Source of the DNA: Squalus acanthias
Taxonomy: Eukaryota
NCBI GenBank assembly: GCA_030390025.1
Contig: CM059432.1
Location: 50,098,001-50,162,000, forward strand
Reading direction: 5' to 3'
Length of the DNA stretch: 64,000 nt
Shown: in pieces, positions 1,700-54,690 of the stretch
Layout: each line of letters opens with the position of its first letter
Numbering within the stretch: the stretch's first letter is position 1
Notes under the pieces: model-generated
Seen by the model: the letters and a program-made list of their open reading frames with translations, nothing else
What the model was told of the DNA's origin: nothing
Database searches by the model: none
Translations under genes and position numbers: made by a program

Positions 1700-2341
1700 A
1701 CAAAGCTTAACTGGACCAGCTAAATCAACATTGTTGCAATAAGAGCAGAGCAGAAGCTCAGAGGCTTATCTCCTGACCCCTCAAAGCCTCTCCACCATCA
1801 CGAGTGGGGAATGTGATAAAATACTCATCATTTGCCTGGATGGGTGCAGCCTCATCAACACACAAGAAGTTTGACACCATCTAGGACAGAGCAGTTCACG
1901 TGATTGGAGTCCCTACAATGATTCAATATCCACTGCACACCCCCCCCCCCCCCCACGCCCCACACTTCCCTCATCACTGGCACCCTATGGCCGCAGTATG
2001 TACAATCTACAGGATGCTTCGATGTTGCTTCAATGGCATTGGCCACCCCTGTGAACTTTACCAGCAAGAAGGCAAGAGTAGCCATATCATGGGAACCATT
2101 ATCCCCAAGTTCCCCTCCAAGTCACACCATCTTGATTTTGATATATATTGTCACTTTTTTCATCATTACTGGATCTATATCCTGGAATTCATTACCTAAT
2201 AGCATTGTGGGAGTGGCATCACCACAAGGACTGCAGCAGTTCAAGGAGAAGGCTTCAAACTATCTTCTCAGGGCAACAAGAGATGGACAATAATTATGAC
2301 CTTATCAGCATCGCCTACATCCTGAAAACAAATGAAAAAGA
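1700..2341 (+). mobile_element. Old 3' fragment of the tRNA-headed CR1-group LINE family
   Basis: Diverged match to 49760-50430 (MAAVCTIYRM; ccaagttcccctccaagtcac; 3' end catcgcctacatcc...aatgaaaaa). Confidence 0.8.
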
Positions 2342-2546
2342 TATCACATATAGCTGGATGAGGCAGTGTCAATGAGGTTGAAAAGCTAGGTTTCGGTCAT
2401 GACCAGGATGTCGATGAACTTATTGAGAATGAGGTTGTGGATGGGGAAAGCCCTTGTTTACAAGGGAACTGACATTTTGCACAGTGATAGGGACTGGATG
2501 GGTAGAAGTAGACCCACAGAGGGGTTTAAGACCAGGGAGATGGAAA

Positions 2547-3627
2547 GATAGAATCATAGAATGGTTACAGCACAGTAGGAGGCCATTCAGCCCGTCGAGC
2601 CCGTGCCAGCTCTCTGCAAGAGCACTTCAGCGAGAACCACTCCCCCGCCCTTTCCCCGTAGCCATACAAATCTTTTTCCTTCAGGCAATTATCCAATTCC
2701 CTTTTGAAAGCCATGATTGGATCTGCCTCCACCACCATTTCAGGCAGTGAATTCCAGATCATAACCACTCGCTGCGTAAACAAGTTTTTCCTCATGTCGC
2801 CTTTGAATCCTCTGCCAATCACCTTAAATCTGTGTCTGCTGGTTCTCGACCCTTCCACCAATGGGAACAGTTTCTCTCTATCTACTCTGTCTAGACCCCT
2901 CATGATTTTGAACACCTCTGTCAAATCTCCTCTCAACCTTCTCTGCTCCAAGGAGAACAATCCCAGCTTCTCCAGTCTATCCATGTAACTGAAGTCCCTC
3001 ATCCCTGGAACCATTCTCATAAATCTTTTCTGCACCCTCTCGAAGGCCTTCACATCCTTCCTAAAGTGCAGTGCCCAGAATTGGACACAATACTCCAGTT
3101 GTGGCAGAAACAATGTTTTATAAAGGCTCATCATAACTTCCTTGCTTTTGTACTCTATGCCTCTATTTATAAAGCCTAGGATCCTGTATGCTTTTTTAAC
3201 TGCTTTCTCAACCTGCCCTGCCACCTTTAACAATTTGTGCACATATATCCCCAGGTCTCTCTGTTCCTGCACCCACTTTAGAATTGTACCCTTTAGTTTA
3301 TATTGCCTTTCCTCGTTCTTCCTACCAAAATGTATCACTTGGCACTTTTCCGCATTAAACTTCATCTGCCACGTGTCCGCCCATTCCACCAGCCTGTCTA
3401 TGTCCTCTTGAAATCTATCCCTATCCTCCTCACTGTTCACTATACTTCCAAGTTTTGTGTCATCCTCAAATTTTGAAATAGTGCCCTGTACACCTAAGTC
3501 CAAATCATTAATATATATCAAGAAAAGCAGTGGTCCTAGTACCGACCCCTGGGGAACACCACTGTATACCTTCCACCAGTCCAAAAAACAACCGTTCACC
3601 ACTACTCTCTGTTTCCCGTTTCCTGTC
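2547..3627 (-). mobile_element. 5'-truncated CR1 LINE (RT C-terminal half, open frame)
   Basis: ORF 2565-3716 has GVPQGSVLGP, KFEDD (degenerate FADD), LEYCVQFW, RRLRGDL; (ATTCTATG)-type tail at 2547-2562. The ORF portion 5' of about 3627 is non-CR1 flank. Confidence 0.93.
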
Positions 3628-4144: not shown

Positions 4145-7100
4145 GGGGTCGACATTAACCCTCCCACGACAGGCAGGAGAGGGTCGGGGCGGACGATTCA
4201 GAATTAAAAATCAGGGAACGCGTCCCCAACCCGCCGCATATGTGCCATTCGGCATTTTTACGTTGGTGGGTACCGTGGTGTGTGTGTGTGCCCCATCTTG
4301 GAGAGGCGGAAAACTTCAATATAGTATTTATATCAGGCTCCCACAGTGGAGTTGGGAGCCTGATTTAAATTGAACAGCTGCCAGCCGGGTTTCCCAGAGC
4401 TCGGGGAACCTGGCAGCGAAATGGAGACGGAAGCAGCAGGCTGCAGCAGGTAAGTGCTTTTTATAGCATTCCTTGTGGGTCTGGAGGAGCAGGAGAGCTC
4501 CCTCATCAAGGAAGCCTTCAGAGTCCCTTTTGCCCATTATGGCGTCTCCTCGCTGCCATGATTGGCTGACCACCCCATTCCAACCCCAATCTCCGGCCTG
4601 CCTGATCTTTCTCTCCCTCCCTCGCCATTACTGTTCTTTGATCGCACCCGCCTCCTGCCCCCACCTGACTTTGATCTTTCCAGCCTGTCAATCTGGCTGG
4701 CTGCCAGGTGGGAAACAGAAGAAGAAATTGATAATGAGGTCCTGTAACTGAACCGACTAGGGGGCAAGCAACCTTAGATCTGGTCCTGTGTAACGAGACA
4801 GGATTAATTAAAAATGTCCTAGTAAAGGATCCCCTTGGAATGAGTAACCATAACATGGTTGAATTCCATATTCAATTAGAGGGTGAGAAGGTTGGATCTC
4901 AAACAAGCGTGCTAAGCTTGAATAAAGGAGACTATGAAGGTATGCGAGCGGAATTGAGTAGAGTGGATTGGGAAAATAGATTATAAGTTAAGACGATACA
5001 TGATCAGTGGTGTACATTTAAGGAGTTATTTTACAACTTCCAAAAAAAATGTATTCCACTGAGAAGAAAAGGGTGTAAAAGAAAAGACAGTCATCCGTGG
5101 CTAAGTAAAGAAATTAAGGATAGTATTCAACTAAAAGCAAGGGCTTATAAGGTAGCCAAATCTAGTGGGAGGATAGAGGATTGGGAAAACTTTAAAAGAC
5201 AGCAAAAAATAACAAAAAGATTGATTAAGAAAGGGAAGATAGATTATGAAAGTAAATTAGCAAAAAATATAAAAACAGATAGGAAGAGTTTTTATAGTTA
5301 TATAAAAAGAAAAAGGGTGGCTAAAGTAAAGGTTGGTCCCTTAGAGGATGAGACCAGGAAATTAATGGTGGTAAATATGGAGATGGCAAATACACTGAAT
5401 GAATATTCTGTATCAGTCTTTACAGTAGAGGACACTAAGAATATCCCAACACTGGACAAACAGGGGGCTATAGGGGGGGAGGAGCTAAACACGATCAAAA
5501 TCACTAAGGAAGTGGTACTCGGTAAAATAATGGGACTCAAGGCGGATAAATCACCTGGACCTGATGGCTTACATCCTAGGGTCTTGAGGGAAGTGGCGGT
5601 AGGGATTGTGGATGCATTGGTAATAATTTTCCAAAACTCCCTGGACTCAGCAAAGGTCCCGGCAAACTGGAAAACTGCTAATGTAACACCCTTATTTAAA
5701 AAGGGCAGTAGACAGAAGGCTGGAAACTATAGACTGGTTAGCCTAACATCTGTGGTAGGTAAAATTTTGGAGTCCATTATTAAGGAGACAGTAACGGGAC
5801 ATTTGGATAATCATAATTTAATAGGACAAAGTCAGCATGGTTTTATGAAGGGGAAGTCATGTTTGACAAATTTGCTGGAGTTCGTTGAGGAAGTAGCATA
5901 CAGGGCGGATAAAGGGGAACCAGTGGATGTGGTGTATTTAGACTTCCAAAAGGCATTTGACAAGGTGCCACACAAGAGATTATTGCTTAAGATAAAAAAT
6001 CACGGGATTGGGGGTAATATTCTGGCATGGATAGAGGATTGGCTATCTAACAAAAGGCAGAGAGTTGGGATAAATGGTTCATTCTCAGACTGGCAATCAG
6101 TAACTAGTGGTGTTCCGCAGAGGTCAGTGCTGGGTTCCCAACTCTTTAAAATCTATATTAACGATTTGGAGGAGGGGACCGAATGTAACATATCAAAGTT
6201 TGCAGATGATACTAAGATGGGAGGGAAAGTAGTGAGTGAGGAGGACATAAAAAATCTGCAAGGGGACATAGACAGGCTAAGTAAGTGGGCAGAGATTTGG
6301 CAGATGGAATACAATACTGGAAAGTGTGAGGTTATGCACTTTGGCAGGAAAAATAGTAGAGCAAGTTATTATCTTAATGGCAAGAAACTGGAAAGTACTG
6401 AAGTACAAAGGGATCTGGGGGTCCTGGTGCACGAAACTCAAAAGGTTAGTATGCAGGTGCAGCAAGTGATTAAGAAGGCCAATGGAATGTTGGCTTTCAT
6501 TGCTAGGGGGACAGAATATAAAAATAGGGAGGTATTGCTTCAGTTGTACAAGGTATTGGTGAGACCGCACCTGGAATACTGCATACAGTTTTGGTGTCCA
6601 TACTTAAGAAAAGACATACTTGCTCTCGAGTCAGTACAAAGAAGGTTCACTCGGTTAATCCCGGGGATGAGGGGATGGACATATGAGGAGAGGTTGGGTA
6701 GATTGGGACTCTACTCATTGGAGTTCAGAAGAATGAGAGGCGATTTTATTGAAACATATAAGATTGTGAAGGGGTTGGATCGGGTGGATGCGGGGAGGAT
6801 GTTCCCGATGATGGGTGAAACTAGAACTAGGGGGCATAGTCTTAGAATAAGGGGCTGCTCTTTCAAAACTGAGATGAGAAGGAACTACTTCACTCAGAGG
6901 GTGGTAGGTCCATGGAATATGCTGCCCCAAAAAGCTGTAGAAGCTACATCATTACATAAATTTAAAACAGAAATAGACAGTTTCCTAGAAGTAAAGGGAA
7001 TTAAGGGTTACGGGGAGCGGGCAGGAATTTGGACATGAGTCTAGGTTCGGATCGGTCATGGCCCTGTGGGTAGCGTAGCGGGCCCAGGGGCCGTGTAGCC

Positions 7101-7380
7101 TGATCCTGCTCCTATTTCGTGTGTCCAATTCTGTTAGGTTCAGGAGATGTTTCTGTGATAGTAGATTGGCGGTTAGGATCAGATCAGCCATGATCTTATT
7201 GAATGGCGGAGCAGGCTCGAGGGGCCAATTGGCCTACTCCTGCTCCTATTTCTTATGTTCTTATGTTCTTATGTCCTGCCATTAAATTTGGCAGGAACTC
7301 CGCGTCCCAGGGATTTCCGGGTTTACTCCCACAACCGCACTCCCCCGCACCCTTCCAACCTCCCTGTAAATATTGGGGCC
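4145..7380. mobile_element. MITE (G-rich-repeat family) interrupted by a CR1 insertion
   Basis: 4145-4744 and 7273-7380 match the reverse complement of the two ends of 51085-52184; 3-bp TSD aac (4142-4144, 7381-7383). Confidence 0.75.
4745..7272 (+). mobile_element. 5'-truncated CR1 LINE, same subfamily as 33642-38099
   Basis: 605-aa RT ORF at 5221-7038 nearly identical to ORF2 of the full-length copy; (TTCTTATG)n tail; TSD gtcctg (4739-4744, 7273-7278). Confidence 0.96.
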
Positions 7381-9783: not shown

Positions 9784-10262
9784 GGGAAATGGTAGAATAG
9801 TGGTTATGTTACTGGACTAGTAAACCAGAGGCTGGGACTAATAATCTGAGAGACATGAGTTCAAATCCCACCATGGTAGTTGGAGAATTTAAATTCAGTT
9901 GATTAAATAAATCTGGAAAAATAAAAAGGTAGTATCGGTGATGGGTATTAGTATTGAAACTATTGGACTGTCATTTAAAAAAACACAACTGGTTCACTAA
10001 TGTCCTTCAGGGAAGGAAATCTGCTACCCTTACCCAGTCTGGCCTATATGTGACTACAGACCCACAGCAATGTGGTTGACTCTTAGCTGCCCTCTGAAAT
10101 GGTTTAGCAAGCCACTCAATTGTATCAAAACTGCTACAAAAAACTCTAATCCACATGGTTCAAGAAGGTGGCTCACCACCACCTTCTCAAGGTCATCTCG
10201 GGATGGGCAATAAATGCTGGTCTTGCCAGCAAAACCCACATCCCATGAATGAATAAAAAAAA
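9784..10262 (+). mobile_element. tRNA(Thr-like)-derived SINE sharing both ends with the LINE at 22408-26447
   Basis: A box tagaatagtgg, anticodon-like loop ctAGTaa, B box gagttcaaatcc; body matches the reverse complement of 25270-25535; last ~105 nt match the LINE 3' end. Confidence 0.88.
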
Positions 10263-17430: not shown

Positions 17431-18221
17431 CTGTACAAATGGAATAAAACCAAACCTGTAGCTCAACATTTACATTTTTTTATTTATGCTGAAATACCAC
17501 ACGATTAATGAAGTTAATTAATTCATGTTTCACACTGCGCCTTCCTGTTATACACCATTTCAGTCAACCAATACATGTTCTTGGGAAACATAACTGGATA
17601 TTGTTAAACATGAGTTTGTCTACAAGATTATGGATTGGATGTTATCCCATTCACTATAAATAGAAGAAAAACAGGCCCCTGAATGACTCATTTAGTATGG
17701 TATTGAGCTGCACACATTTGGAAGGTCCCAGATCTGAAATCTTAATCTATACTAAGTTAGATGTCCTCAACTGGGCCATGGAAGGTGCCTCTATGTCACC
17801 GGACAGGGAAAACACACAGTAAGGGTTCCTGGTCCTGATTGCTATCCAATGATCTTTGCTGGAAAGTGCATTATATGCATGAATAAATTAATGAAATAAA
17901 TACATGTGCCTAGAAATTCATTTGCCCCCGAAAAAGGGGGCGGGGATCGCGATACGCTTGCAACCCATGCCTGTTTGGAGAACTGCAGGCAGAAAGCAAA
18001 CTTTGTGCTGCTTGCTCATTTCCATGATTGTGGCGGTCAGCCCAATGTTAAATGCGCTGCTGAGTGGCAGAACGCTCAGCAGGGGGCCCAAGTTCGTGTG
18101 AGGCTAGCACCAATTAAAGCTGCACTTCTGAAAGGCAGACTGCACCTCTTAAAGGTGAGGTGCATTCTGTCTGCAGCAGCTCATTCAACTGGCTGAGGAA
18201 AAGAGTGGAAAACAAACAATT

Positions 18222-19803
18222 AATGATAGTACAACAGGGCAGAGAGCGTGCAGCAAGGTTCTCCGATGCAGGACTGGAGGCCTCAGTGCAAAAGGTCAAA
18301 AGAAGGAGAGAGGTCCTCTTTCAACAGGGGGCCAGGAGGCCCTCCAGGCAACAGTGCAAAGTGCAGTGGGAGCAGATAGCCACTATGGTGAATGCCAGCA
18401 GTGTAGCTCTGAGGATGTGGATGCAGTGCAGGAAGATGTTTAATGACCTCACACGAGTGGTCAAGATCAGTGAATTCATCTTCAAATGCCATATCCCATC
18501 ATCTGCACCACTAGCTCAATGCACCACACCACCATCACTCACCTACCAACAATCTCTACCAAACACAACTCATACCTTACATTCATAGCTTCACCTCAGC
18601 CTAACACACTTACCACTGCTGCAAGCCTCACACCCACATCTTACAGCTTGCAAACACTGCTAGCTATTTACCCATGACAGGCACATCACCCAAACACATT
18701 GCACCACACTCACTAACACACTTCCCTTTCTCTTGCAGGAAAAGGTGGTGCATGAGACTGTCCCCCACCAGCAGAACCTAACCGGTGGGGAACAGGCTCA
18801 CCTGCATCACTTCATGCTCATGGAGGAGACGGTGCTGGCCATTCTTGGGAGAGGCATGGCTGAGCCCGTGGCCAGCGGCGGAGCTGGAAGAATACAAGAT
18901 GCCAGTATGTTAGCCTCCTTCCCACATCCCACATCCCCCTCATCCCATAATTCTTCTGATTTACAAGCGGCACATGGTGTAAGCAAGCACCTCTTGCTTC
19001 CCCCCCTCCCCTCACCACAACCCTACCCTTGAGTTTTTCTCATTTCAGAGACCCAAGAAATCCAACCTGCCCAGCCAATGGTTCAAGAAGAAGAGGGAGA
19101 GGAGAGTGATGAAGAAGAAGAAACACTGTCACTCGATCTGACACTCGCAGGCACCAGCTCAGATACTGGTACTGCGCACAGTTTAGAGGGTAGCTTAGAG
19201 GTGGTATTTGCACAGGGTGAGACACTGAGCACGAGTGGGCTGCAGCCAGAGCAGGGGGAAAGGGTAGCGCAGTTGCTAGCTCCCCGGAGGGCGAGGTCGC
19301 ACATGAGTTCTGCTGCAGAGGACTCAGATGAGGACTTCGATGAGATGGCCTACAGAAGAACGCTGATGGGTATGGACAGCAAAATGCTTGGTGCATTGGC
19401 AGGCCTGTCAGAAAGCCTGAGTGCAATGTCAAGGAGCATGGAGGAGTCCAGCAGCAACCTTGAACAGGGCTTTGCGAAGAGCTTGGAGCCCATCCTTTCC
19501 AGTATAGAAGGGGTGGGCAGATTTATTCGCGCACTTGTAGACCCAACCATCATGCAGCGTCTGATGGCTGATGTCTCAGCTCCCACTGCAGCACAAGCAC
19601 AAGCCACCCAATGTCTGAGTGCTGCAGTGGAAGCTCAGACTGCTGCCATCATGGCTGGGTTTACCAGTGTGAAAAAGGGCTTGCAGGGTGTCACGCATTC
19701 CAGCAATCTGTCCTCCAACAGATGGCTAGGAATGCTGAGGCACCACCCCGTGGGAGTGGCAGTGGCTCCGTGGAGCAAGAACCTGCGTCCTCTTTCAGGG
19801 TGA
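18222..19803 (+). pseudogene. Harbinger Myb/SANT-like DNA-binding protein gene, three exons (18222-18465, 18739-18904, 19049 to about 19800)
   Basis: RERAARFSDAGLE...WEQIA...QCRKMFNDL; acceptors ttgcag and tttcag; joined exons stay in frame; first donor reads AT instead of GT. Confidence 0.8.
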
Positions 19804-19859
19804 CAGCATTCGTCCTCCCACTACTGCCACTCTGCCAGTGCCCTTGCTGTTACCACCTT

Positions 19860-20900
19860 TCACTTCCTACTCCTCCTCTTTCTCCTCTTCCTCCTCCTCC
19901 TCTTCCTCCTTCTCCTCAGCTGGTCGCCGTATGCCTGGTGGCAAGATCTGGGCCCTCATGATGGCGAGGTTATGGAGCTTGCAGCAGACCACAAAGAAAT
20001 TGAGATGCATTCTGGTGAGTACTGCAGAGCTCCTTCAGAGCGGTCCAGGCCCGGAACCATTGCTTCAGCACCCCAATGGTCTGCTCTATCAGATTCCGTG
20101 TGGCAGCATGGCTCTCATTGTACGCATGCTGCCCACGTGTGGTTGGGTTGCGGAACAGAGTTATGAGCCAGGTGGTCAGTGGATAGCCCTTGTTGCCCAG
20201 TAGCCACCCTCTGGTTTGTCTTGGTGGCTCAAAGACTGAGGTAACAGCAGACTGCTGCTGAGTAAATGCATCATGACTGCTGCCAGGATATCGGGCATTC
20301 ACCAGCATGCTGTGCGGAACATGGTCGCACACGAACTGTACATTCAGTGAGTGGTAACCTTTGTGGTTGCGGTACATCTCAGCATTTAGATGTGGTTCCC
20401 GCAAAGCCACTTGTGTGCAGTTGATGGCGCCCTGCAACATGGGGAAGCCCACTATCCTGGCAAAGCCACATGCACACTCCGCCTGACAATGAAGTCCCAT
20501 CTCCTGGCTTAAAGAGTGTCTGTCACCTCTCTTATGCAGCAGTGGACGGCGAACTGTGAGATGTTACAGATGTCGTCTGCTCCAGCCTGGAAGGATCCCG
20601 ACGCGAAGAGATTCAGGGCCACGGTCACCTTCACAGCCACTGGCAGCACTATCCTTACCCTGGTGTGAGGCTACAGCTGTGGTTGCAAAAGGTAGTAGAG
20701 TTCTGTGAATGCCTCATACTGCTCCTCACTCAGGTTGAGCTAAGAGAATTGCTCTCGGAAGACCCTAGATGGGTAAGGCCTCCTACTGAGAGCCCTTCTC
20801 CCCCTTCTCCTTCTTCCTCTGCGAGCAGCTTGTCCTCTTCTTTGCTGCATCTGCTCCATCTCCTTGTCATGCTGCAGGCCAAGGGGATGACAACACCCAT
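19860..20900 (-). pseudogene. Harbinger transposase (DDE_Tnp_4, HARBI1-like), disrupted
   Basis: [90 protein letters not shown]; stops and frameshifts. Confidence 0.9.
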
Positions 20901-21399
20901 GACTGGGAGCAAGTGATCTGACCAGAACCCTTGAAGTTAGAACCAAGGCCTTCTCCAGTTGCAGCACCACTCCCTGTCACCTCACCAACTTTAAACAACT
21001 CTAGAAAGCTCCAAACTGTTCCACAAACTTAGATAGAGCCAGTAGAAATTAATCAGCAACTCACCTGAGAGTGGTTGATGATCCCTTTAAATATCACTTG
21101 TAGGGGGTCCTTTTTGAGCTGCTGAATGCATGTTTAGTTGTGTGAGGTTAACGCAGGGCATTAGTTCCAGCATTGAGGATGAAAATGGCAGTGCAGGCAT
21201 CAAATCAGCGTTGCATGCTGATTGACGTCACTAATTGCCTACTCTACATACTTCTGGCGTATGCTCCCAGTGCTGATGCTAATGCCCTCACCAAGAATTG
21301 TGGGCACGTGGCTTGGACGCCATTTTTGACCCAAAACAGCACCCATAGTGACCAAACAATGGGTGCTACTCAATCGAATACTCATCCTCCACCCTTATA

Positions 21400-21890: not shown

Positions 21891-22407
21891 ATCTACCTGA
21901 ACAGAACATCTTAGATCATCTTGATACAGTAGTGCACAGTGGTTTGGCAAATGTGACTGAAGTGACCAGAGGAAGATGGGAACGACCCACTGCCGTACAG
22001 ATTCAGCGTTGTGCTCCTTGTTGAGCTGGGCTATGAATCTACGGGCAGTAGCTGGAATAACTGCCCAGTAGCCTCTGGGAAAGTGCAGCTTTCAACCACA
22101 ATGTGGAGAATTTTGGTTTGGGCACTGAACGGGTGCAATATTAATGATTAATGCAGCACCCGTCCAACAGGGCAATTGGGAGGCTCAAACCACCTTCAGG
22201 TTTGGGCCTCATTAACATTTTGGCAGCGAACTGCGGCCAAGATGGGAACTCTGCCGCAGTTCACCGGTTTCCTGCTATTATGCCGCAGGATTTCCAGGGC
22301 TTCTCCTAATGGATGGAACTTGATGAGCATCTATAATAACTATAGGCCCAGTGTTCAAATCTAAATTGTTATTTTGTGCTTTGCGGCATGGGGCGCCCAT
22401 GATGGAC

Positions 22408-25400
22408 TTTTTTTTAAATTCGTTCTTGGGATGTGGGCCTCGCTGGCATGGCCAGCATTTATTACCCATCCCTAAATGCCCTTGAGAAGGTGGTTGTGAG
22501 CCACCTTCTTGAAACGCTGCAGTCCTTGTGGTGAAGGTACTCCCATAATGCTGTTAGGGAGTGAGTTCCAGGATTTCGACCCAGTGACGATGAAGGATCG
22601 GCGATATATTTCCAAGTCAGGATTGTGTGTAACTTGGAGGGGAACTTACAGGTGATGGTGTTCCCATGTGCCTGCTGCCCTTGTCCTTCTAGGTGGTAGA
22701 GGCCGCGGGTTTGGGAGGTGCTGTCGAAGAAGCCTTGGCGAGTTGCACAGTGCATCTTGTAGATGGTACACACTGCAGCCATGGTACGCCGGTGGTGGAG
22801 GGAGTGAATGTTTAAGGTGGTGGGTGGGGTGCCGATCAAGTGGGCTGCTTTGACCGGGATGGTGTCAAGCTTCTTGAGTGTTGTTGGAGCTGCACTCATC
22901 CAGGTAAGTGGAGAGTATACCATCACACTCCTGACTTGTGCCTTGTAGATGGTGGAAAAGCTTTGGGGAGTCAGGAGGTGAGACACTCACTGCAGAATAC
23001 CCAGCCTCTGACCTGCTCTTGAAGCCACAGTATTTATTTGGCTGGTCCAGTTATGTTTCTGGTCAATGCTGACCCCCAAGATGTTGATGGTGGGGGATTC
23101 GGCAATGGTAATGTTGTTGAATGTCAAGGGGCAGTGGTTAGACTCTCTTTTGTTGGAGATAGTCATTGCCTGACACTTGTGTAGTGCGAATGTTTGTTGC
23201 CACTTATCAGCCCAAGCTTGAATGTTGTCCAGGTCTTGCTGCATGCAGGCATGGACTGCGTCATTATCTGGGGAGTTGCAATCATTAGTGAACATCCCCA
23301 CTTCAGACCTTATGATGGAGGGAAGGTCATTGAAGAAACAGCTGAAGATGGCTGAGCCTAGGACACTGCCCTGAGGATCTCCTGCAGCGATTACCTGGGG
23401 CTGAGTAGATTGACCTCCAACAACCACAACCATCTTCCTTTCTGCTTGTGACTTTAATTATACTAGGGCTCCTTGATGCTACACTCGGTCAAATGCTGCC
23501 TTGATGTCAAGGGCAGTCACTCTCACCTCACCTCTGGAATTCAGCTCTTATGTCCAAGTTTGGACCAAGGTTGTAATGAGGTCGGGAGCCGAGTGGTCCT
23601 GGCAGAACTCAAACTGAGCATCGGTGAGCAGGTTATTGGTGAGTAAGTGCCACTTGATAGCACTGTCGACGACACCTTCCATCACTTTGCTGATGATTGA
23701 GAGTAGACTGATGGGGTGGTAATTGGCCGGATTGGATTTGTCCTGATTTTAGTGGACAGGACATACCTGGGCAGTTTTCCACATTGTCGGGTAGATGCCA
23801 GTGTTGTAGCTGTACTGGAACAGCTTGGCTTGAGGCATGGCTAGTTCTGGAGTGCAAGTCTTCAGCACGACAGCCAGGATGTTGTCAGGGCCCATAGCCT
23901 TTGCTGTATCCAGTGCACTCAGCCGTTTCTTGATATCACATGGAGTGAATCGAATTGGCTGAAAACTGACTTCTGTGATGGTGGGGACGTCAGGAGGAGG
24001 CCAATATGGATCATCCACTCGGCACTTCTGGCTGGAGATGGTTGCAAAATCTTCAGCCTTGTCCTTTGCACTCACGTGCTGGGCTCCACCATCACTGAGG
24101 ATGGGGATATTCATGGAGCCTCCTCCTCCTGTTAGTTGTTTAATGGTCCACCACCATTCACGACTGGATGTGGCAGGACTGCAGAGCTTTGATCTGATCA
24201 GTTGATTGTGGGATTGCTCAACTCTGTCTATAGCATGCTGCTTTCACTGTTTAGCATGCATATAGTCCTGTGTTGCAGCTTTACCAGGTTGGCACCTCAT
24301 TTTTAGGTACGCCTAGTGCTGCTCCTGGCATGCTCTTCTGCACTCATTGAACCAGTTCTGGTCCCCTGGCTTGATGGTAATGGTAGAGTAAGTGATATGC
24401 CAGGCGATGAGGTTGCAGATTGTGGTGGAGTACAATCCTGCTGCTGCTGATGGCTCACAGCGCCTCATGGATGCCCAATTTTGAGCTGCTAGATCTGTTC
24501 TGAATCTATTCCATTTAGCATGGTGGCAGTGCCACACAATACAATGGAGGGTGTCCTCAGTGTGAAGATGGTTCTTTGTCTCCACAAGGACTGTGCGGTG
24601 GTCACTGCTACCAATGCTGTCATGGACAGATGCATCTGCGATAGTTAGATTGGTGAGGACGAGGTCAAGTAGGTTTTTCACTCGTGTTGGTTCTCTCACC
24701 ACCTGCCGCAGGCCCAATCTGGCAGCTATGTCCTTCAGGACTCGGCCAGCTCGGTCAGTAGTGCTGCTACCGAGCCACTCTTGGTGATGGACATTGAAGT
24801 CCCCTGACCCAGAGTACATTCTGTGCCCATGCTATCCTCAGTGCTTCTTCCAAGTGGTGTTCTTCTATGAAAGTGTACTGATTCATCAGCTGAGGGAGAG
24901 CAGTAGGTGATAATTAGCAGGAGGTTTCCTTGCTCATGCTTGACCTGAAGCCATGAGACTTCATGGGGCCACTCCCTCCCAACTGTATATCACTGTGCTG
25001 CCACCCCTGGTGGGTCTGTCCTGCCAGTGGGACAGGACATACCCAGGGATGGTGATGGAGGAGTCTGGGACATTGGCTGAAAGGTATGATTCTGTGAGTA
25101 TGACTATGTCAGGCTGTAGCTTGACTAGTCTGTGGGACAGCTCTCCCAATTTTGATACAAGTTCCCAGATGTTAGTGTGGAGGACTTTGCAGGGTCGACT
25201 GGGCTGGGTGTGCTGGTGTCGTGTCTGAAGTCGGTGTGGGGTGGTCCGTCCGATTTTATTCTTATTATTTCTTTCTGTAATGGTTTGTTACAAATGAGTG
25301 GCTTGCTAGGCTATTTCAGCGGGCAGTTAAGAGTTAACCACATTGCTGTGGGTCTGGAGTCACGTATAGGCCAGATCGGGTAAGGACGGCAGATTTCCTT

Positions 25401-26447
25401 CCCTAAAGGTCATTAGTGAACCAGATGGGTTTTTATGACCCCATTACTGATACTAGCTTTTTATTCCAGATTTATTTAATTAACTGAATTTAAACTCCCC
25501 AGCTGCCATGATGGAATTTGAACTCACGTCTCTGGCTCAGTGAATGGGCGAGAACATGGCAGATGGAATATAATGTGGATAAATGTGAAGTTATCCACTT
25601 TGGTAGAAAAAACAGAAAGGCAGAGTATTTCCTAAATGGTGAAAGATTGGGGAACGCAGATGCTCAAAGGGACCTGGATGTCCTTGTACATGAGTCACTG
25701 AAAGTGAATGTGCAGGTGCAGCAAGCCATTAGGAAGGCAAATGGTATGCTGGCCTTCATTACAAGAGGATTTGAGTACAGGAGTAAAGAAGTCTTACTCC
25801 AATTATATAGGGCCTTGGTGAGACCACACCTGGAGTACTATGTACAATTTTGGTCTCCTTACCTAAGGAAGGATATACTTGCCATAGAGGGAGTGCAACG
25901 AAGGTTCACGAGATTGATTCCTGGGATGGCGGGACTGTCGTATGAGAAGAGATTGAGTAAACTAGGCCTGTATTCTCTTGAATTCAGCAGAATGAGAGGG
26001 GATCTCATTGAAGCATACAAAATGATTACAGGGCTTGATAGGATGGATGCTGGGAGAATGTTTCCCTTGGCTGGGGAGTCTAGAACCAGGAGCCACAGCC
26101 TCAGGATAAAGGGTAGGCCATTCAGGACTGAGATGAGAAGATATTTCTTCACACAGAGGGTGATGAATCTTTGGAATTCTCTACCCCAGAGGGCTGTGGA
26201 GGCTCAGTTATTGGGTATATTCAAAACAGAAGTCGATAGATTTCTGACTAGTAAAGGCATCAAGGGATATGGCGATAGGGCCGGTGAATGGAGTTGAGGC
26301 AGAAGATCAGCCATGATCTCATTGAATGGCGGAGCAGGCTCGAAGGGCTGAATGGCCTACTCCTGCTCCTATTTCTTATGTTCTTATGTTCTTATCTAGG
26401 CCTCTGGATTACTAGTTCAGTAACATAAACACTATGCTACCATTCCC
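22408..26447 (-). mobile_element. CR1-group LINE with tRNA-derived 5' head, decayed EN-RT frame and no ORF1; head interrupted by a CR1
   Basis: Head at 26396-26447 and 25270-25535; EN motifs QPDIVILTES, GDFNVHH, LDLVLT, SSDH; RT motifs KAMGPDNI, PQGSVLG, WADKWQ, YKAQVRS; 3' end gccagcga...cccacatccc plus A-rich tail. Confidence 0.88.
25536..26395 (+). mobile_element. 5'-truncated CR1 inserted into the tRNA head
   Basis: ORF 25518-26297 (WQMEYNVDKC, RPHLEYYVQFW, RMRGDLIE); (TTCTTATG)n tail. Confidence 0.95.
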
Positions 26448-33880: not shown

Positions 33881-36832
33881 TCATGTCCAAATTCCTGCCC
33901 GCTCCCCGTAACCCTTAATGCCCTTTACTTCTAGGAAACTGTCTATTTCTGTTTTAAATTTAATTAATGTTGTAGCTTCTACAGCTTTTTGTGGCAGCAT
34001 ATTCCATGGACCTACCACCCTCTGAGTGAAGTAGTTCCTCCTCATCTCAGTTTTGAAAGAGCAGCCCCTTATTCTAAGACTATGTCCCCTAGTTCTCGTC
34101 TCACCCGTCATCGGGAACATCCTCCCCGCATCCACCCGATCCAACCCCTTCACAATCTTATATGTTTCAATAAGATCGCCTCTCATTCTTCTGAACTCCA
34201 ATGAGTAGAGTCCCAATCTACCCAACCTCTCCTCATATGACCACCCCCTCATCCCCGGGATTAACCGAGTGAACCTTTTTTGCACTGCCTCGAGAGCAAG
34301 GATGTCTTTCCTTAAGTAAGGACACCAAAACTGTATGCAGTATTCCAGGTGCGGTCTCACCAATACCTTGTACAACTGAAGCAATACCTCCCTATTTTTA
34401 TATTCTATCCCCCTAGCAATGAAAGCCAACATTCCATTTGCCTTCTTAATCACTTGCTGCACCTGCATACTAACCTTTTGAGTTTCGTGCACCAGGACCC
34501 CCAGATCCCTTTGCACTTCAGTACTCTCCAGTTTCTTGCCATTAAGATAATAAATTGCTCTAGGATTTTTCCTGCCAAAGTGCATCACCTCACACTTTCC
34601 AGTGTTGTATTCCATCTGCCAAATCTCTGCCCACTTACTTAGCCTGTCTATGTCCCCTTGCAGGTTTTTTATGTCCTCCTCACTCACTACTTTCCCTCCC
34701 ATCTTTGTATCATCTGCAAATTTTGATATGTTACACTTGGTCCCTTCCTCCAAATCGTTAATATAGATTGTGAAGAGTTGGGGACCCAGCACTGACCCCT
34801 GTGGAACACCACTAGTTACTGATTGCCAGTCTGAGAATGAACCATTTATCCCAACTCTTTGCTTTCTGTTAGATAGCCAATCCTCTATCCATGCCAGAAT
34901 ATTACCCCCAATCCCGTGATTTTTTACCTTAAGCAATAATCTTTTGTGTGGCACCTTGTCAAATGCCTTTTGGAAGTCTAAATACACTACGTCCACTGGT
35001 TCCCCTTTATCCACTCTATATGTTACTTCCTCAAAGAACTCCAGCAAATTTGTCAAACATGACTTCCCCTTCGTAAAACCATGCTGACTTTGTCCTATTA
35101 AATTATGATTATCCAAATGTCCTGTTACTGTTTCCTTAATAATGGACTCCAAAATTTTACCTACCACAGATGTTAGGCTAACCGGTCTATAGTTACCAGC
35201 CTTCTGTCTACTGCCCTTTTTAAATAAGGGTGTTACATTAGCAGTTTTCCAGTCTGCCGGGACCTTAGCGGAATCCAGGGAGTTTTGAAAAATTATTACC
35301 AATGCATCTACAATCCCTACCGCCACTTCCTTCAAGACTCTAGGATGTAAGCCATCAGGTCCAGGTGATTTATCCGCCTTGAGTCCCATTATTTTACCGA
35401 GTACCACTTCCTTAGTGATTTTGATCGTGTTTAGCTCCTCTCCCCCTATAGCCCCCTGTTTGTCCAGTGTTGGGATATTCTTAGTGTCCTCTACTGTAAA
35501 GACTGATACAAAATATTCATTCAGTGTTTTTGCCATCTCCATATTTCCCACCATTAATTTCCCGGTCTCATCCTCTAAGGGACCAACATTTACTTTAGCC
35601 ACCCTTTTTCTTTTTATATAACTATAAAAACTCTTACTATCTGTTTTTATATTTTTTGCTAATTTACTTTCATAATCTATCTTCCCTTTCTTAATCAATC
35701 TTTTTGTTATTTTTTGCTGCCTTTTAAAGTTTTCCCAATCCTCTGTCCTCCCACTAGATTTCGCTACCTTATATGCCCTTGTTTTTAGTCGAATACTATC
35801 CTTAATTTCTTTACTTAGCCACGGATGACTGTCCTTTCTTTTACACCCTTTTCTTTTCAGTGGAATATATTTTTTTTGGAAGTTGTAAAATAACTCCTTG
35901 AATGTACACCACTGATCATGTGTCGTCTTACCCTTTAATCTATTTTCCCAATCCACTCTACTCAATTCCGCTCGCATACCTTCATAGTCTCCTTTATTCA
36001 AGCTTAGCACGCTTGTTTGAGATCCAACCTTCTCACCCTCTAATTGAATATGGAATTCAACCATGTTATGGTCACTCATTCCAAGGGGATCCTTTACTAG
36101 GACATTTTTAATTAATCCTGTCTCGTTACACAGGACCAGATCTAAGGTTGCTTGCCCCCTGGTCGGTTCAGTTACATACTGCTCAAGAAACCCATCCCTA
36201 ATACACTCAATGAACTCATCCTCAAGGCAGCCCTGCCCCATTTGATTTGTCCAATTAATATGATAGTTAAAATCCCCCATAATTATAGATGTTCCCTTAT
36301 TACATGCCTCAACTATTTCCTGATTGATACTCCGTCCAATAGAGTTGCAACTGTTCGGAGGCCTATAGACTACGCCCACTAATGTTTTTTTCCCCTTATT
36401 ATTCCTTATCTCCACCCAAACTGTTTCATTATCATGATTTTTTGACCCAATATCATTACTCTGTATTACAGTGATTCCTTCCTTTATTAACATAGCCACC
36501 CCACCTCCCCTTCCTTCCTGCCTGTCCTTCCTGATCGTTAAATAACCTGGTATGTTTAATTCCCAGGCATTGTCACCCTGCAGCCATGTTTCTGTAATGG
36601 CCACAATATCATAACCATATGTAGTTATTTGTGCCATTAACTCGTCTATTTTGTTACGAATGCTACGTGCATTCAGATAGAGAACTTTCAAATATGCTTT
36701 GTGGCACTTAGTTCCTGCTTTTTCACTTTTTACCAGTTTACCTTTTACTCCACACACTCTGTCCCTTCCTGCCACGCTCTGATTTGTGATTCCCCTACTG
36801 CTACCTATGTCTATGACCCTCTCTGTTGTCAT
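33881..36832 (-). CDS. CR1 ORF2: AP endonuclease and reverse transcriptase (983 aa)
   Basis: YLNARS, ITETW, GDFN, LDLV, SDH; QHGF, YLDFQKAFD, GVPQGSVLGP, FADD. Confidence 0.97.
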   Translation of the reverse strand: MTTERVIDIGSSRGITNQSVAGRDRVCGVKGKLVKSEKAGTKCHKAYLKVLYLNARSIRNKIDELMAQITTYGYDIVAITETWLQGDNAWELNIPGYLTIRKDRQEGRGGGVAMLIKEGITVIQSNDIGSKNHDNETVWVEIRNNKGKKTLVGVVYRPPNSCNSIGRSINQEIVEACNKGTSIIMGDFNYHINWTNQMGQGCLEDEFIECIRDGFLEQYVTEPTRGQATLDLVLCNETGLIKNVLVKDPLGMSDHNMVEFHIQLEGEKVGSQTSVLSLNKGDYEGMRAELSRVDWENRLKGKTTHDQWCTFKELFYNFQKKYIPLKRKGCKRKDSHPWLSKEIKDSIRLKTRAYKVAKSSGRTEDWENFKRQQKITKRLIKKGKIDYESKLAKNIKTDSKSFYSYIKRKRVAKVNVGPLEDETGKLMVGNMEMAKTLNEYFVSVFTVEDTKNIPTLDKQGAIGGEELNTIKITKEVVLGKIMGLKADKSPGPDGLHPRVLKEVAVGIVDALVIIFQNSLDSAKVPADWKTANVTPLFKKGSRQKAGNYRPVSLTSVVGKILESIIKETVTGHLDNHNLIGQSQHGFTKGKSCLTNLLEFFEEVTYRVDKGEPVDVVYLDFQKAFDKVPHKRLLLKVKNHGIGGNILAWIEDWLSNRKQRVGINGSFSDWQSVTSGVPQGSVLGPQLFTIYINDLEEGTKCNISKFADDTKMGGKVVSEEDIKNLQGDIDRLSKWAEIWQMEYNTGKCEVMHFGRKNPRAIYYLNGKKLESTEVQRDLGVLVHETQKVSMQVQQVIKKANGMLAFIARGIEYKNREVLLQLYKVLVRPHLEYCIQFWCPYLRKDILALEAVQKRFTRLIPGMRGWSYEERLGRLGLYSLEFRRMRGDLIETYKIVKGLDRVDAGRMFPMTGETRTRGHSLRIRGCSFKTEMRRNYFTQRVVGPWNMLPQKAVEATTLIKFKTEIDSFLEVKGIKGYGERAGIWT

Positions 36833-36870
36833 TTTTATTTTTTGCTCTCTTGAAACCTCCCCCCCACTAA

Positions 36871-37827
36871 TTAGTTTAAAGCCCTCTCCACAGCCCTAGT
36901 TATTCGATTCGCCAGGACACTAGTCCCAGCACTGGCCAAGTGAAGTCCGTCCCAACGGAACAGCTCTCTCCTGCCCCAGTACTGGTGCCAGTGTCCCAAG
37001 AAGCAAAACCCATTTTTCCCACACCAGTCTTTGAGCCACGCATTCAACTCCCTGATTTTATTTACCCTAGCCAAATTTGCTCGTGGCTCAGGTAGTAATC
37101 CAGAGATTATTACCCTCGAGGTTCTGCTTTTTAATTTGGCCCCTAGCTGCTCAAACTCCCTCAGCAGAACCTCTTTCCTTGTCCTATCTATGTCATTGGT
37201 ACCAACATGGACCACGACAACTGGATCCTCCCCCTCCCACTCCAAGTTTCTCTCCAGCCCAGAGGAGATGTCCTTAACCCTGGCACCGGGCAGGCAACAC
37301 AGCCTTCGGGACTCTCGCTCTTGGCTGCAAAGAACCCTATCTATCCCCCTAATGATACTATCCCCTACCACTACAACATTTCTTTTTACTCCCCCCACTT
37401 GAATGGCCCCCCTTACCACGGTGCTGTGGCCAGGTTGCTCATCCTCCCTGCAGTCCCCGCTCCTATCCACACAGGGAGTAAGAGCCTCGAACCTGTTGGA
37501 CAAGAGCAAGGGCTGCGGCTCCTCCAACACTACCTCCTGGATCCCTGTACCTGCCTCACTCGTAGTCACACCTTCCTGTCCCTGACCACGGGCTACTTCT
37601 GAATTAGTTACTCTAATTGGTGTGACTACCTCCTGAAACACGGAGTCCAGGTAACTCTCCCCCTCCCTGATGTGTCGCAGTGTTTGAAGCTCGGACTCCA
37701 GCTCATCAACACGGAGCCGGAGTTCCTCGAGCAGCCAACACTTACTGCAAATGTGTTCACCGTGAACATCAATGGTGTCCACCAGCTCCCACATATTGCA
37801 GCAGTAACACATCACCTGCTCTCCCAT
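36871..37827 (-). CDS. CR1 ORF1: zinc finger, coiled coil and SGNH/GDSL esterase (318 aa)
   Basis: CYCC...CSKC, leucine-heptad segment, VVVGDS, LPGA, HVGTND, DGLHL. Confidence 0.95.
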   Translation of the reverse strand: MGEQVMCYCCNMWELVDTIDVHGEHICSKCWLLEELRLRVDELESELQTLRHIREGESYLDSVFQEVVTPIRVTNSEVARGQGQEGVTTSEAGTGIQEVVLEEPQPLLLSNRFEALTPCVDRSGDCREDEQPGHSTVVRGAIQVGGVKRNVVVVGDSIIRGIDRVLCSQERESRRLCCLPGARVKDISSGLERNLEWEGEDPVVVVHVGTNDIDRTRKEVLLREFEQLGAKLKSRTSRVIISGLLPEPRANLARVNKIRELNAWLKDWCGKNGFCFLGHWHQYWGRRELFRWDGLHLASAGTSVLANRITRAVERALN

Positions 37828-37959
37828 TCTATGTAATTAATTAAAAATGTATTATTTACCCTTCAGTTAATTTATGCCAGCAGTCTCTGCTACACCACAG
37901 ATACCCGAGAAACAATAAAATTGAAGTTTTGTATAAAAAAAAAGAGAAATACTCACCAA

Positions 37960-39249: not shown

Positions 39250-39960
39250 ACGGGGCCGGAGCATTGGGGGGGAAGGAGAGGAGATCGGGGCCAAAACATT
39301 GGGAGGGAGGGAGAGAAGATTGGGGCCAGAGCATTGGGGGTGGGGGGGGAAGAGAGGAGATGGGGGCCAGAACATTGGGAGAATGGAGAGAAGACTGGGG
39401 CCGGAGCATCGGCGGGGGGGAGGGAGAGAAGATCAGGGCCAAAGCATCGGGGGGAGGGTGGGGGGGAGAATGGAGAGAAGATCAGGGCCGGAGCATCAGG
39501 TGGGGGGAGGGAGAGAAGACCGGGGCCGGAGCATCAGCGGGGGGGGTGGAGGGAGAGAAGATCGGGGCCGGAGCATCGGGGGGGGGTGGAGGGAGAGAAG
39601 ATCAGGGCCGGAGCATCAGGTGGGGGGAGGGAGAGAAGACCGGGGCCGGAGCATCGGCGGGGGGGTGGAGGGAGAGAAGATCGGGGCCGGAGCATCGGGG
39701 GGGGGGGGGGGGTGAGAGAAGATCGGGGCCAGAGCATCGGGGTGGAGGAAAGCAATGACCGGGGCTGGAGCATCGGCGGGGGTGGGGTGGGATGGGAGTT
39801 ATGGAGGGAGAGAAACATGCACCCGCACTGGAGGATCGGGGTTGGGGGGAGGGGGGGAAGCATCGGGGCCGGCCTGAGGATCATAAGTGGTGGGGGGGGG
39901 AGCATTGGGGTCTGAGGATCATCGATGGGTGGCCGGTGGAGTCTGGGAAGGCCATCGGGG
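39250..39960 (+). repeat. G-rich minisatellite (~38-40-bp unit ggggccggagcatcggggggggtggagggagagaagatc) inside a MITE-like element ending near 40323
   Basis: More than ten visible tandem units with variable G-run length. Confidence 0.92.
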
Positions 39961-49249: not shown

Positions 49250-50631
49250 CCCATTGACATCAGGCAGCATCTGACCGAGTGTGGCATCAAGGAGCCCTTG
49301 TAAAACTGAAGTCAATGGGAATCTGGGGAAAACTCTCCACTGGCTGGAGTCATACCTGAGCACAAAGAAGATGGTTGTGCTGGTTGAAGGTCAATCATCA
49401 CAGCCCCAGGACATCACTGCAGGAGTTCCTCAGGGCAGTGTCCTAGGCCCAACCATCTTCAGCTGCTTCATCACTGACCTTCCCTCTAACATAAGGTCAG
49501 AAATGGAGATGTTCGCTGATGACTGCACAGTGTTCAGTGCCATTCACAACTCCTCAGATAATGAAGCAGTCGATGCCCGCACGCAACAACACCTGGACGA
49601 CGTTCAGGCTTGGGCTGATAAGTGGCAGGTAACATTCGCGCCACAGAAGTGCCAGGCAATGACTTTCTCCAACAAGCGAGAGTCTAACCACCGCCCCTTG
49701 ACATTCAACTGCTTACCATCGCCGAATCCCCACCATCAACATCCTGGGGGTCACCATGACCAGCCACATAAATACTGTGGCAACAAGAGCAGGTCAGGGG
49801 CTAGGTATTCTGTGGCGAGTGTCTCACCTCCTGACTCTCCAAAGCCTTTCCACCATCTACAAGGCACAATTACATTTCCCACCTGGCAGCCAACCAAATT
49901 GACAAGTAAGGAGTGTGATGGAATACTCTCCACTTGCCTGGATGAGTGCAGCTCCAACAACGCTCAAGAAGCTCGACACCATCCAGGACAAAGCAGCCCA
50001 CTTGATTGGCATCCCATCCACCACCTTAAACATTCACTCCCTCCACCACTGGCGTATCGTGGCTGCAGTGTGTACCATCTACAAGATGCACTGCAGCAAC
50101 TCACCAAGGCTTCTTCGGCAGCACCTCCCAAACCCACGACCTCTTCCACCTAGAAGGACAAGGGCAGCAGGCACATGGGAACACCACCACCTCCAAGTTC
50201 CCCTCCAAGTCACACACCATCCTGACTTGGAAATATATTGCCGATCCTTCATCGTCACTGGATCAAAATCCTGGAACTCCCTCCCTAACAGCACTGTGGG
50301 AGTAACTTCACCACAAGGACTGCAGTGGTTCAAGAAGGCGGCTCACCACCACCTTCTCAAGGGCAATTAGGGATGGGCAATAAATACTGGTCTTGCCAGC
50401 GACGCCCACATCCCAGGAACTAATTTTTAAAAAGTCCATCATGGGCGCCCTATGCCGCAAAGCACAAAATAACAATTTAGATTTGAACACTGGGCCTATA
50501 GTTATTATAGATGCCCATTAGGGGAAGCCCTGGAAATCCTGGGGCATACTAGCAGGAAACCGGTGAGCTGCGGCAATAAATGCTGACCTTGCCAGCGACG
50601 CCCACATCCCACAAAAATGAATTTAAAAAAA
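49250..50631 (+). mobile_element. 5'-truncated copy of the tRNA-headed LINE family with a 3' extension and a second 3' end
   Basis: GVPQGSVLGP, MFADD, WADKWQ; 3' end near 50433, extension 50434-50575, repeated 3' end 50572-50631. Confidence 0.9.
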
Positions 50632-54168: not shown

Positions 54169-54214
54169 CTTATGTTCAACTAATGCTCAGATCCCCAAAA
54201 TACGATGTTCGCAA

Positions 54215-54690
54215 GTAATGTAGCCATTTTGAAACCAGGTAAAGACCCTACAAGCTCAAAGAACATCAGACAAATTTTTCTATTGTGTTTCACGAATAAG
54301 TTATTCGAATGCCTCATTTTGAACCAGTTCTCCCCCCATGTGGAACAGCTTACCCCAGAACAGGCAGGTTGCCACCTTGGAAAATCACGCACAAACCAAC
54401 TACTTAATCTGACCCAGCATACTGAAGATGGATTTGAACAAGGCCTAATAACTGGAGCTGTCTTTGTTGAGCTGTCAGCTGCCTATGACACTGTTAATCA
54501 CCACATACCTGTGCAGAAGGTTTTTAACATGACGAAGGATGCTTGTCCGAACTTTATTAGCGAATCACCGTTTTTTTCAAGGAACAATGTGGAAAAAAAA
54601 GTCAACAGCGTGGGCAATGGAATGGGCTCCCACAAGGTAGTGTGCTTGCGTCAATGCTATTCAAATACTAATGACTAACCCATTCATCCT
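54215..54690 (+). pseudogene. Vingi/Ingi-like LINE reverse transcriptase fragment
   Basis: ILKPGKDP...PEQAG...GKS...QLLNLTQHTEDGFE...TGAVFVELSAAYDTVNH. Confidence 0.75.

Follow-up and report, generated by a model that had tools for sequence, protein, structure and literature searches.

Deficit of RNA polymerase III terminators in the tRNA-headed Zenon LINE of Squalus acanthias and its probable transcription by this polymerase

Long interspersed elements (LINEs) are regarded as RNA polymerase II (Pol II) messengers, and the products of RNA polymerase III (Pol III) as short and non-coding. The question of how strict this division is arises from a stretch of 64,000 nt of Squalus acanthias (assembly GCA_030390025.1, contig CM059432.1, positions 50,098,001 to 50,162,000), called here the window, whose coordinates are used below. 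Its minus strand is the sense strand of a LINE copy (copy 1), identified below as Zenon, which begins with a tRNA-like head. The original prediction was that this strand had been selected for Pol III read-through, as it nearly lacks runs of four T (T4). We demonstrate that a deficit of Pol III terminators exists at the level of the LINE family, and we weigh how it may be explained.

The genome search with the 5' part of the element gave 40 scored matches among 10,120 candidates; 39 were retrieved, 12 fragmented ones were left out, and the remaining 27 genomic copies were aligned with the window copy. The majority sequence of these 28 copies (3304 nt) begins with the tRNA-like head, followed by a leader, a single frame, AATAAA and an A tail, which is also present in most of the copies. 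The frame comprises 1011 codons, 988 of them from the first ATG, and no other sense frame of at least 150 codons exists. According to Pfam, this single frame combines an endonuclease (EN, of the APE type) with a reverse transcriptase (RT), while the first open reading frame (ORF1) is absent. In the searched text of Stuart et al. 2026 (PMC13343379), Zenon of sharks and rays is described as lacking ORF1 and carrying a poly(A) tail, found only in Zenon among the CR1-group elements. The first ~300 letters of our majority match SquAca_Zenon-1 of this publication with few differences, and the length of 3.3 kb is the same (the published rows were compared by eye over their first 400 letters). Judged by these likenesses of sequence and structure, the element is the elasmobranch Zenon LINE of Stuart et al. 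Its protein relatives are single-frame LINEs of ~950 residues with 33–40% identity, the named matches coming from lancelet and crab; in a quick tree, they form with it a clade of 55 rows (SH-aLRT 99), none of them named Zenon, apart from the CR1 and L2 of the same genome.

The family is abundant, since in content-blind tiles of 800,000 bases it occupies 51,706 bases in 63 matches, including five long head-bearing copies and four short interspersed element (SINE) forms, in which the head is joined to the LINE tail. It is present in the runs of eight organisms, and Zenon elements of rays and galeomorph sharks are reported in the text searched to be >84% identical (PMC13343379). The SINE-type joint was also seen in contigs of other organisms, the deletion joints varying between these and the window. 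Along the master lineage, purifying selection acts on the frame: the ratio of nonsynonymous to synonymous changes (pN/pS) amounts to 0.19 for the 58 changes at subfamily sites and to 0.31 when the old and young majorities are compared, versus 0.83 for rare changes. The viral contigs searched for relatives yielded none. Two annotated proteins (P0100 and P0108, one of them from the shark Heptranchias) contain pieces of 120 residues 69–76% identical to the Zenon frame, which are either exonised fragments or annotation errors.

The shortest working Pol III terminators are TTTT and TVTTT (20–65% in assays, as given in the text searched of PMC8466645); we took this set from that source after a deficit of TTT had been seen. 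Neither motif occurs in the 3304 nt of the majority sense strand, and the element thus shares with tRNA-derived SINEs and type 2 Pol III genes the lack of an internal terminator. By base shuffle of the whole element 7.1 such motifs were expected (P 0.0002), by shuffling synonymous codons of the frame, which keeps the protein and its codon usage, 3.5 (P 0.012), and under a first-order Markov model 3.7 (P 0.025); the antisense strand carries 20. The deficit extends to TTT runs, 7 of which were found versus 25 expected, and TTT is the most depleted of the 64 trimers under both base and dinucleotide expectation. The TTT deficit stays when protein and codon usage are fixed (P 0.003–0.008). Likewise rare are 5-nt windows containing four or more T (1 versus 9.5; P 0.007), while those rich in A, C or G are at expectation. 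These data clearly indicate a family-level deficit of Pol III terminators in the tRNA-headed Zenon LINE.

The related LINEs without a tRNA head, with which the original prediction was to be compared, do not show this deficit. Among 160 related loci from metagenome and genome contigs, 130 with a homologous frame of at least 400 codons were kept and the other 30 left out. In the 130, TTT has a ratio of 1.07 (sd 0.19, lowest 0.48) versus 0.29 in Zenon, and the pooled T4 count is 1.2 times the expectation. None of the 70 long frames is free of T4, one of the 130 is free of terminators (1.0 expected), and the 13 frames low in T hold 60 T4 runs pooled versus 54 expected. The T-rich window ratio of Zenon (0.11) is the lowest of 134 frames, the next being 0.59. 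Within the same genome, terminator counts agree with expectation in the CR1a (16 versus 16), CR1b (15 versus 12) and L2 (15 versus 14) elements. An RTE family of 29 copies, found through the long T4-free stretch of one copy, has still less T (0.166) and nevertheless five terminators versus 3.6–4.4 expected, with normal TTT counts; we saw no tRNA-like head in the 300 nt before its frame, its true 5' end not being established. This family (L396 2000–5330, minus strand; L473–L502) is young, with copies 95–97% identical to their majority and a TG repeat before the frame. Among the control sources, many prokaryote genome bins (L150, L153–L229) carry animal-type LINE contigs, which probably represent host contamination.

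The deficit is reproduced in different samples and ages of the family. The majority of the content-blind sample is likewise free of terminators; this sample holds 14 T4 runs in 51,706 bases, and another 29 copies, selected by the element's middle part, hold 17 in 73,320 bases. T4 is absent from 19 of the 28 aligned copies, and both TTTT and TVTTT from 11 of 31 full-length young ones. The copies carry 0.8–0.9 T4 runs per 3.3 kb, which is near the 0.69 obtained from simulated neutral decay, and a hidden T4-carrying subfamily was not seen. None of the 66 subfamily variants creates TTT, and among copies, T alleles are not clearly less frequent at sites where they create a terminator than at others. 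The older wave (29 matches below 80% identity; 1112 columns with 129 differences) has no terminators and one TTT run versus 5.0 expected (P 0.023). Avoidance of the target of the element's own endonuclease, which we take to be TTTT/AA, was ruled out, as the A-runs of the sense strand are at expectation. Neither did codon choice prove useful: the proposed comparison of Phe codons gave TTT:TTC of 3:15, which does favour TTC but is weak evidence, since Tyr, His and Asp also favour C-ending codons and the RTE family has 6:26. The low Phe content (1.8%) was dropped as evidence too, because the whole subclade is Phe-poor; it is a clade trait and probably a pre-adaptation.

The alignment of the heads demonstrates A and B boxes at the 5' end of the element, as in SINEs, by the consensus which we presume for these boxes. 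The Rfam tRNA model scores the heads of two of four copies at 26.3 and 23 bits, below the gathering cut-off of 29. ARAGORN detected a tRNA neither in the window nor among 60 related loci, but it misses the head of Zenon as well. Among the published rows (supplement of PMC13343379, by eye), all seven elasmobranch ones, from five species, start with a tRNA-like head and have no TTTT in their first 400 letters, while the three rows of hagfish and coelacanth lack it and carry T4 runs there. One old, nearly full-length copy has the head too. An alternative 5' end was rejected, as 23 truncated copies have no common upstream sequence except for CR1 tails in four and one match of 73 nt. The leader gave no convincing conserved fold (z −2.0, with 6 of 200 shuffles equally good; compensatory change in 6 of 60 pairs). 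The Zenon family itself is published, but we did not find its head or its terminator deficit in the literature searched (PMC7245038, PMC4824008 and PMC11481361 included), from which subscription papers and Repbase reports were largely absent. The searched main text of PMC13343379 gives no matches for tRNA, polymerase or promoter, nor its supplement for tRNA, and the searched text of bioRxiv 10.1101/443036 mentions CR1-Zenon once, with tRNA and polymerase III absent.

We suggest that Zenon RNA is probably made by Pol III, and that transcripts ending at an internal stop would lack the 3' end on which copying depends. Transcription would start through the A and B boxes of the head, and the polymerase would read the 3.3 kb and the A tail, stopping in the flanking DNA as it does for SINEs without a terminator of their own. 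The copying of LINEs begins at the 3' end; an internal terminator would remove this end, and masters possessing it would leave no offspring. Only terminator-free masters would then yield tail-bearing RNA, and such a strict filter predicts a deficit that is specific for both the strand and T. The ancestor was probably already poor in T and Phe, in which case few changes would have been needed after the capture of the head. As to how an uncapped RNA would be translated, our guess is a start without cap in the conserved leader of 350 nt; in the searched text of PMC8223928, A/B-box promoters on a reporter frame cleared of TTTT gave protein, with precedent cited. In its full form, the reading which we prefer, with a probability of about 0.55, is that elasmobranch Zenon would be an autonomous protein-coding LINE, transcribed by Pol III from a captured tRNA-type promoter, with a 3 kb coding strand purged of terminators and its uncapped RNA translated, which makes up ~6% of a vertebrate genome and sheds SINEs by deletion.

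Several data weigh against this reading. We tried four measures of the motifs with several nulls, a choice for which the P values carry no correction; the synonymous and Markov nulls absorb a part of the terminator signal; and T4 alone is weak (0 versus 4.0 in the whole element, P 0.015, and versus 1.86 by synonymous shuffle, P 0.11). Among the shuffles proposed originally, the one that keeps codon usage upholds the depletion for the TTTT/TVTTT set and not for T4. For the older wave, counting terminators by themselves gives no significance (P 0.24). A mild depletion (0.75) also affects CCC, and most of the controls are richer in T, with T ≤0.24 in only 13 of 130. The RTE family has a single T4 in 1064 codons (3.2 kb) with no visible tRNA head, hence near-absence of T4 does not need such a head, and the nearest relative with DNA available, L150, is also low (one T4 versus 3.7; T-rich window ratio 0.6), the six clade members with DNA ranging from 1 to 26 T4 runs. 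By eye, the stingray row deviates in one letter of its B box. Among the best 30 tRNA loci of the genome, most of which are tandem copies of one tRNA-Lys gene, 29 have T4 or longer within 5–7 nt downstream, but T4 is not absolute, as the tRNA-Lys genes hold internal T4. Lastly, uncapped Pol III RNA is doubted as an efficient template for translation (searched text of PMC6023835). The tRNA-Lys(TTT) genes form tandem arrays with a period of ~1.8 kb in several contigs (L443–L472).

Some of these points invite the view that T-runs were not selected at all, a T- and Phe-poor frame having been inherited from the clade and the rest being chance in a single lineage. The 41-row subclade around the family is indeed Phe-poor throughout (1.8–3.4%), their composition leaves L150 and the RTE family with almost no T4, T4 taken by itself does not pass the synonymous shuffle, and all shark copies descend from one lineage and are not independent trials. 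We nevertheless find this improbable: the deficit of TTT and of terminators stays with protein and codon usage fixed and is specific for T and for the strand, while the RTE family with less T retains its terminators, and L150 (Phe 2.2%) has seven, including T5 and T6 before its tail. Transcription by Pol II from a promoter in the leader or the head, with U-runs avoided for some other reason at the RNA level, is unlikely as well, though less so. Binding of U-tract proteins and cryptic splice or 3' processing signals may be thought of as such reasons, and a capped RNA would remove the translation problem; moreover, AATAAA precedes the A tail. In the sources searched, some type 3 Pol III promoters also recruit Pol II (PMC6023835), and a tRNA head is missing from both Zenon of Lepidoptera and its short derivative (PMC6740152). 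However, CR1, L2 and RTE face the same RNA factors in the same genome and are not depleted, the absent motifs are precisely those shown to stop Pol III, and some SINE Pol III transcripts are polyadenylated through AATAAA (both in the searched text of PMC8466645), while the 5' end has retained the head in five species as well as in the old wave. A split route, in which Pol III would make only the template, as for a giant SINE, and the protein would come from rarer capped Pol II transcripts of other copies (e.g., by host-gene read-through), appears very unlikely. It would explain the head and the loss of terminators without cap-independent translation, and the family already yields a true SINE form; but purifying selection on the frame is easiest to understand if the copied RNA is the translated one, and the long copies outnumber the SINE form.

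In the window, the family and the control element used for comparison are represented as follows.

22408..25539, minus strand: Zenon LINE copy 1, comprising the rest of the head, the 5' leader, the decayed single EN-RT frame, a short 3' untranslated region and the A tail
26395..26447, minus strand: first 53 nt of the tRNA-derived head (A-box half), found by blastn of the family majority on the window
25540..26394, plus strand: CR1 3' fragment inserted in the head and not part of the element, recognised by an RT-like open reading frame (25512–26297), repeat families and the alignment gap
25514..25525, minus strand: B-box region of the tRNA head, mapped from the alignment
22472..25343, minus strand: coding frame, running from its first ATG in frame up to the stop; it is broken in copy 1 and counts 988 codons in the family majority
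24046..24049, minus strand: T4 run; the family majority has T3
23962..23965, minus strand: T4 run; the family majority reads TCTT
23336..23340, minus strand: TGTTT, a weak terminator without counterpart in the family majority
22956..22959, minus strand: T4 run, where the majority and copy 2 read CTTT; one other copy (L049) shows this change as well
22401..22463, minus strand: 3' end with the AATAAA position (altered in copy 1) and the A-rich tail; the family majority has no terminator here
49251..50424, plus strand: Zenon copy 2, 5'-truncated (family positions 2135–3294), without TTTT or TVTTT in 49261–50420
9785..10262, plus strand: SINE form, head and leader (1–353) joined to the LINE tail (3197–3302), found by blastn, without terminator
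1703..2339, plus strand: old 3' fragment from this lineage, sharing 67% identity with the majority
33881..36895, minus strand: CR1 ORF2, the control, with 8 T4 runs and 16 terminators, at expectation

Copy 1 is ~90–92% identical to the family majority, and the pieces of its frame match Exo_endo_phos_2 and RVT_1 of Pfam. What the original prediction had counted is exact: the sense strand of 22440–25535 (3096 nt, T 0.212) has three T4 runs and no T5, at the positions listed, copy 2 reads CTTT at the site of the first (22956–22959), and the body of copy 2 has no TTTT. It overlooked the TGTTT at 23336–23340 and the first 53 nt of the head. Its use of these counts as evidence did not survive, since the T4 scarcity of copy 1 is at chance (3 versus 4.85 in base shuffles, P 0.27, and versus 2.4 in dinucleotide shuffles, P 0.78), and so is that of copy 2 (0 versus 1.5 expected, P 0.19). 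The contrast with the CR1 ORF2, said to have at least eight runs, was dropped as well: it has exactly eight of T4 or longer, two being T5, but CR1 is richer in T and its own expectation is 7.1–8.8. As a single decayed copy is at chance, the inference of selection for Pol III read-through rests on the family majority and on the wider set of T-run motifs, where the depletion is restricted to the sense strand and exceeds that due to composition and codon usage. This depletion is, as claimed, independent of the head as a sequence feature, though its support for Pol III is indirect. All three T4 runs of the window copy are absent from the majority; its A box is mutated and has a TGTTT inside it (26395–26447), and with the head split and four terminators the copy itself would be silent by the Pol III route.

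The 146 nt behind the tail of copy 1 (22255–22400) have one other match in the genome, behind the tail of copy 2 (50441–50631). The pair is 27 kb apart, inverted, 87% identical and without a terminator, and on the side of copy 2 it is followed by a second Zenon tail of 58 nt. The two bodies have only 8 common derived changes in 1095 columns, hence any duplication was early. The pair has the appearance of either a local duplication at the DNA level or a 3' transduction combined with a template switch.

The published elasmobranch Zenon elements (SquAca_Zenon-1/2/3, CarCar, RhiTyp, ScyCan and HypSab_Zenon-1) have the same length of ~3.3 kb, one EN-RT frame without ORF1 and a poly(A) tail, while the head and the loss of terminators are not discussed in the searched text of PMC13343379. 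Zenon or CR1-Zenon of invertebrates, hagfish and coelacanth belongs to the same protein clade, with a single frame and an A tail, but has T4 runs. The tRNA-derived SINEs (SINE2), including the bipartite LINE-derived ones (searched text of Kojima 2018, PMC5786205), have the same A/B-box head, a LINE-type tail and no internal terminator. According to this source, SINEs cannot encode a protein and LINEs use Pol II, whereas the shark Zenon has ten times the length of a SINE and codes for an EN-RT of its own, on which purifying selection acts; "short, non-coding" does not fit a 3.3 kb element with a selected frame of 988 codons and fits only the form at 9785–10262. In the shark, the head sits on the LINE itself, from which the SINE differs by lacking the middle part. 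The lepidopteran Persaeus, a short, internally deleted Zenon derivative, also consists of the 5' and 3' ends of Zenon, but is described in the searched text of PMC6740152 as lacking tRNA homology and a Pol III promoter, while the short shark form has both box motifs. SacSINE1 and the CmiSINEs of cartilaginous fishes are tRNA-headed repeats as well, but have Deu or CORE bodies and L2 tails and are set apart from Zenon by their description (searched text of PMC5499810). A parallel in design is offered by the engineered Pol III reporters, which also combine an A/B-box promoter with a coding frame purged of TTTT, and the protein of which drops with a Pol III inhibitor, although that frame is short and artificial (searched text of PMC8223928).

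If the preferred reading is true, a LINE on a SINE promoter erases the line between Pol II-made LINEs and short Pol III RNAs, and provides a natural Pol III transcript of 3.3 kb making an enzyme of 988 residues, with which cap-independent translation of Pol III RNA becomes directly testable; it would also provide a one-step route from LINE to SINE. The strand-specific terminator deficit may then be used as a footprint for finding other Pol III-driven coding elements, if it is scored against composition and with TVTTT included.

The CR1 copy that supplied the control occupies 33881–37836 (minus strand) and has an intact ORF2 (1004 codons) and an ORF1-like frame (321 codons); its inverted copy, 96% identical, lies at 4743–7161. 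Positions 18000–21000 of the window contain a GC-rich repeat with Myb-like and DDE-like frames, presumably of the Harbinger type, which has relatives in the content-blind tiles. An old, low-copy RT fragment of another LINE group, which we take to be of the Vingi or I type, was found at 54184–54678 and has 21 matches in the genome. At 39266–39790, there is a G-rich tandem repeat with a unit of 38–42 nt.

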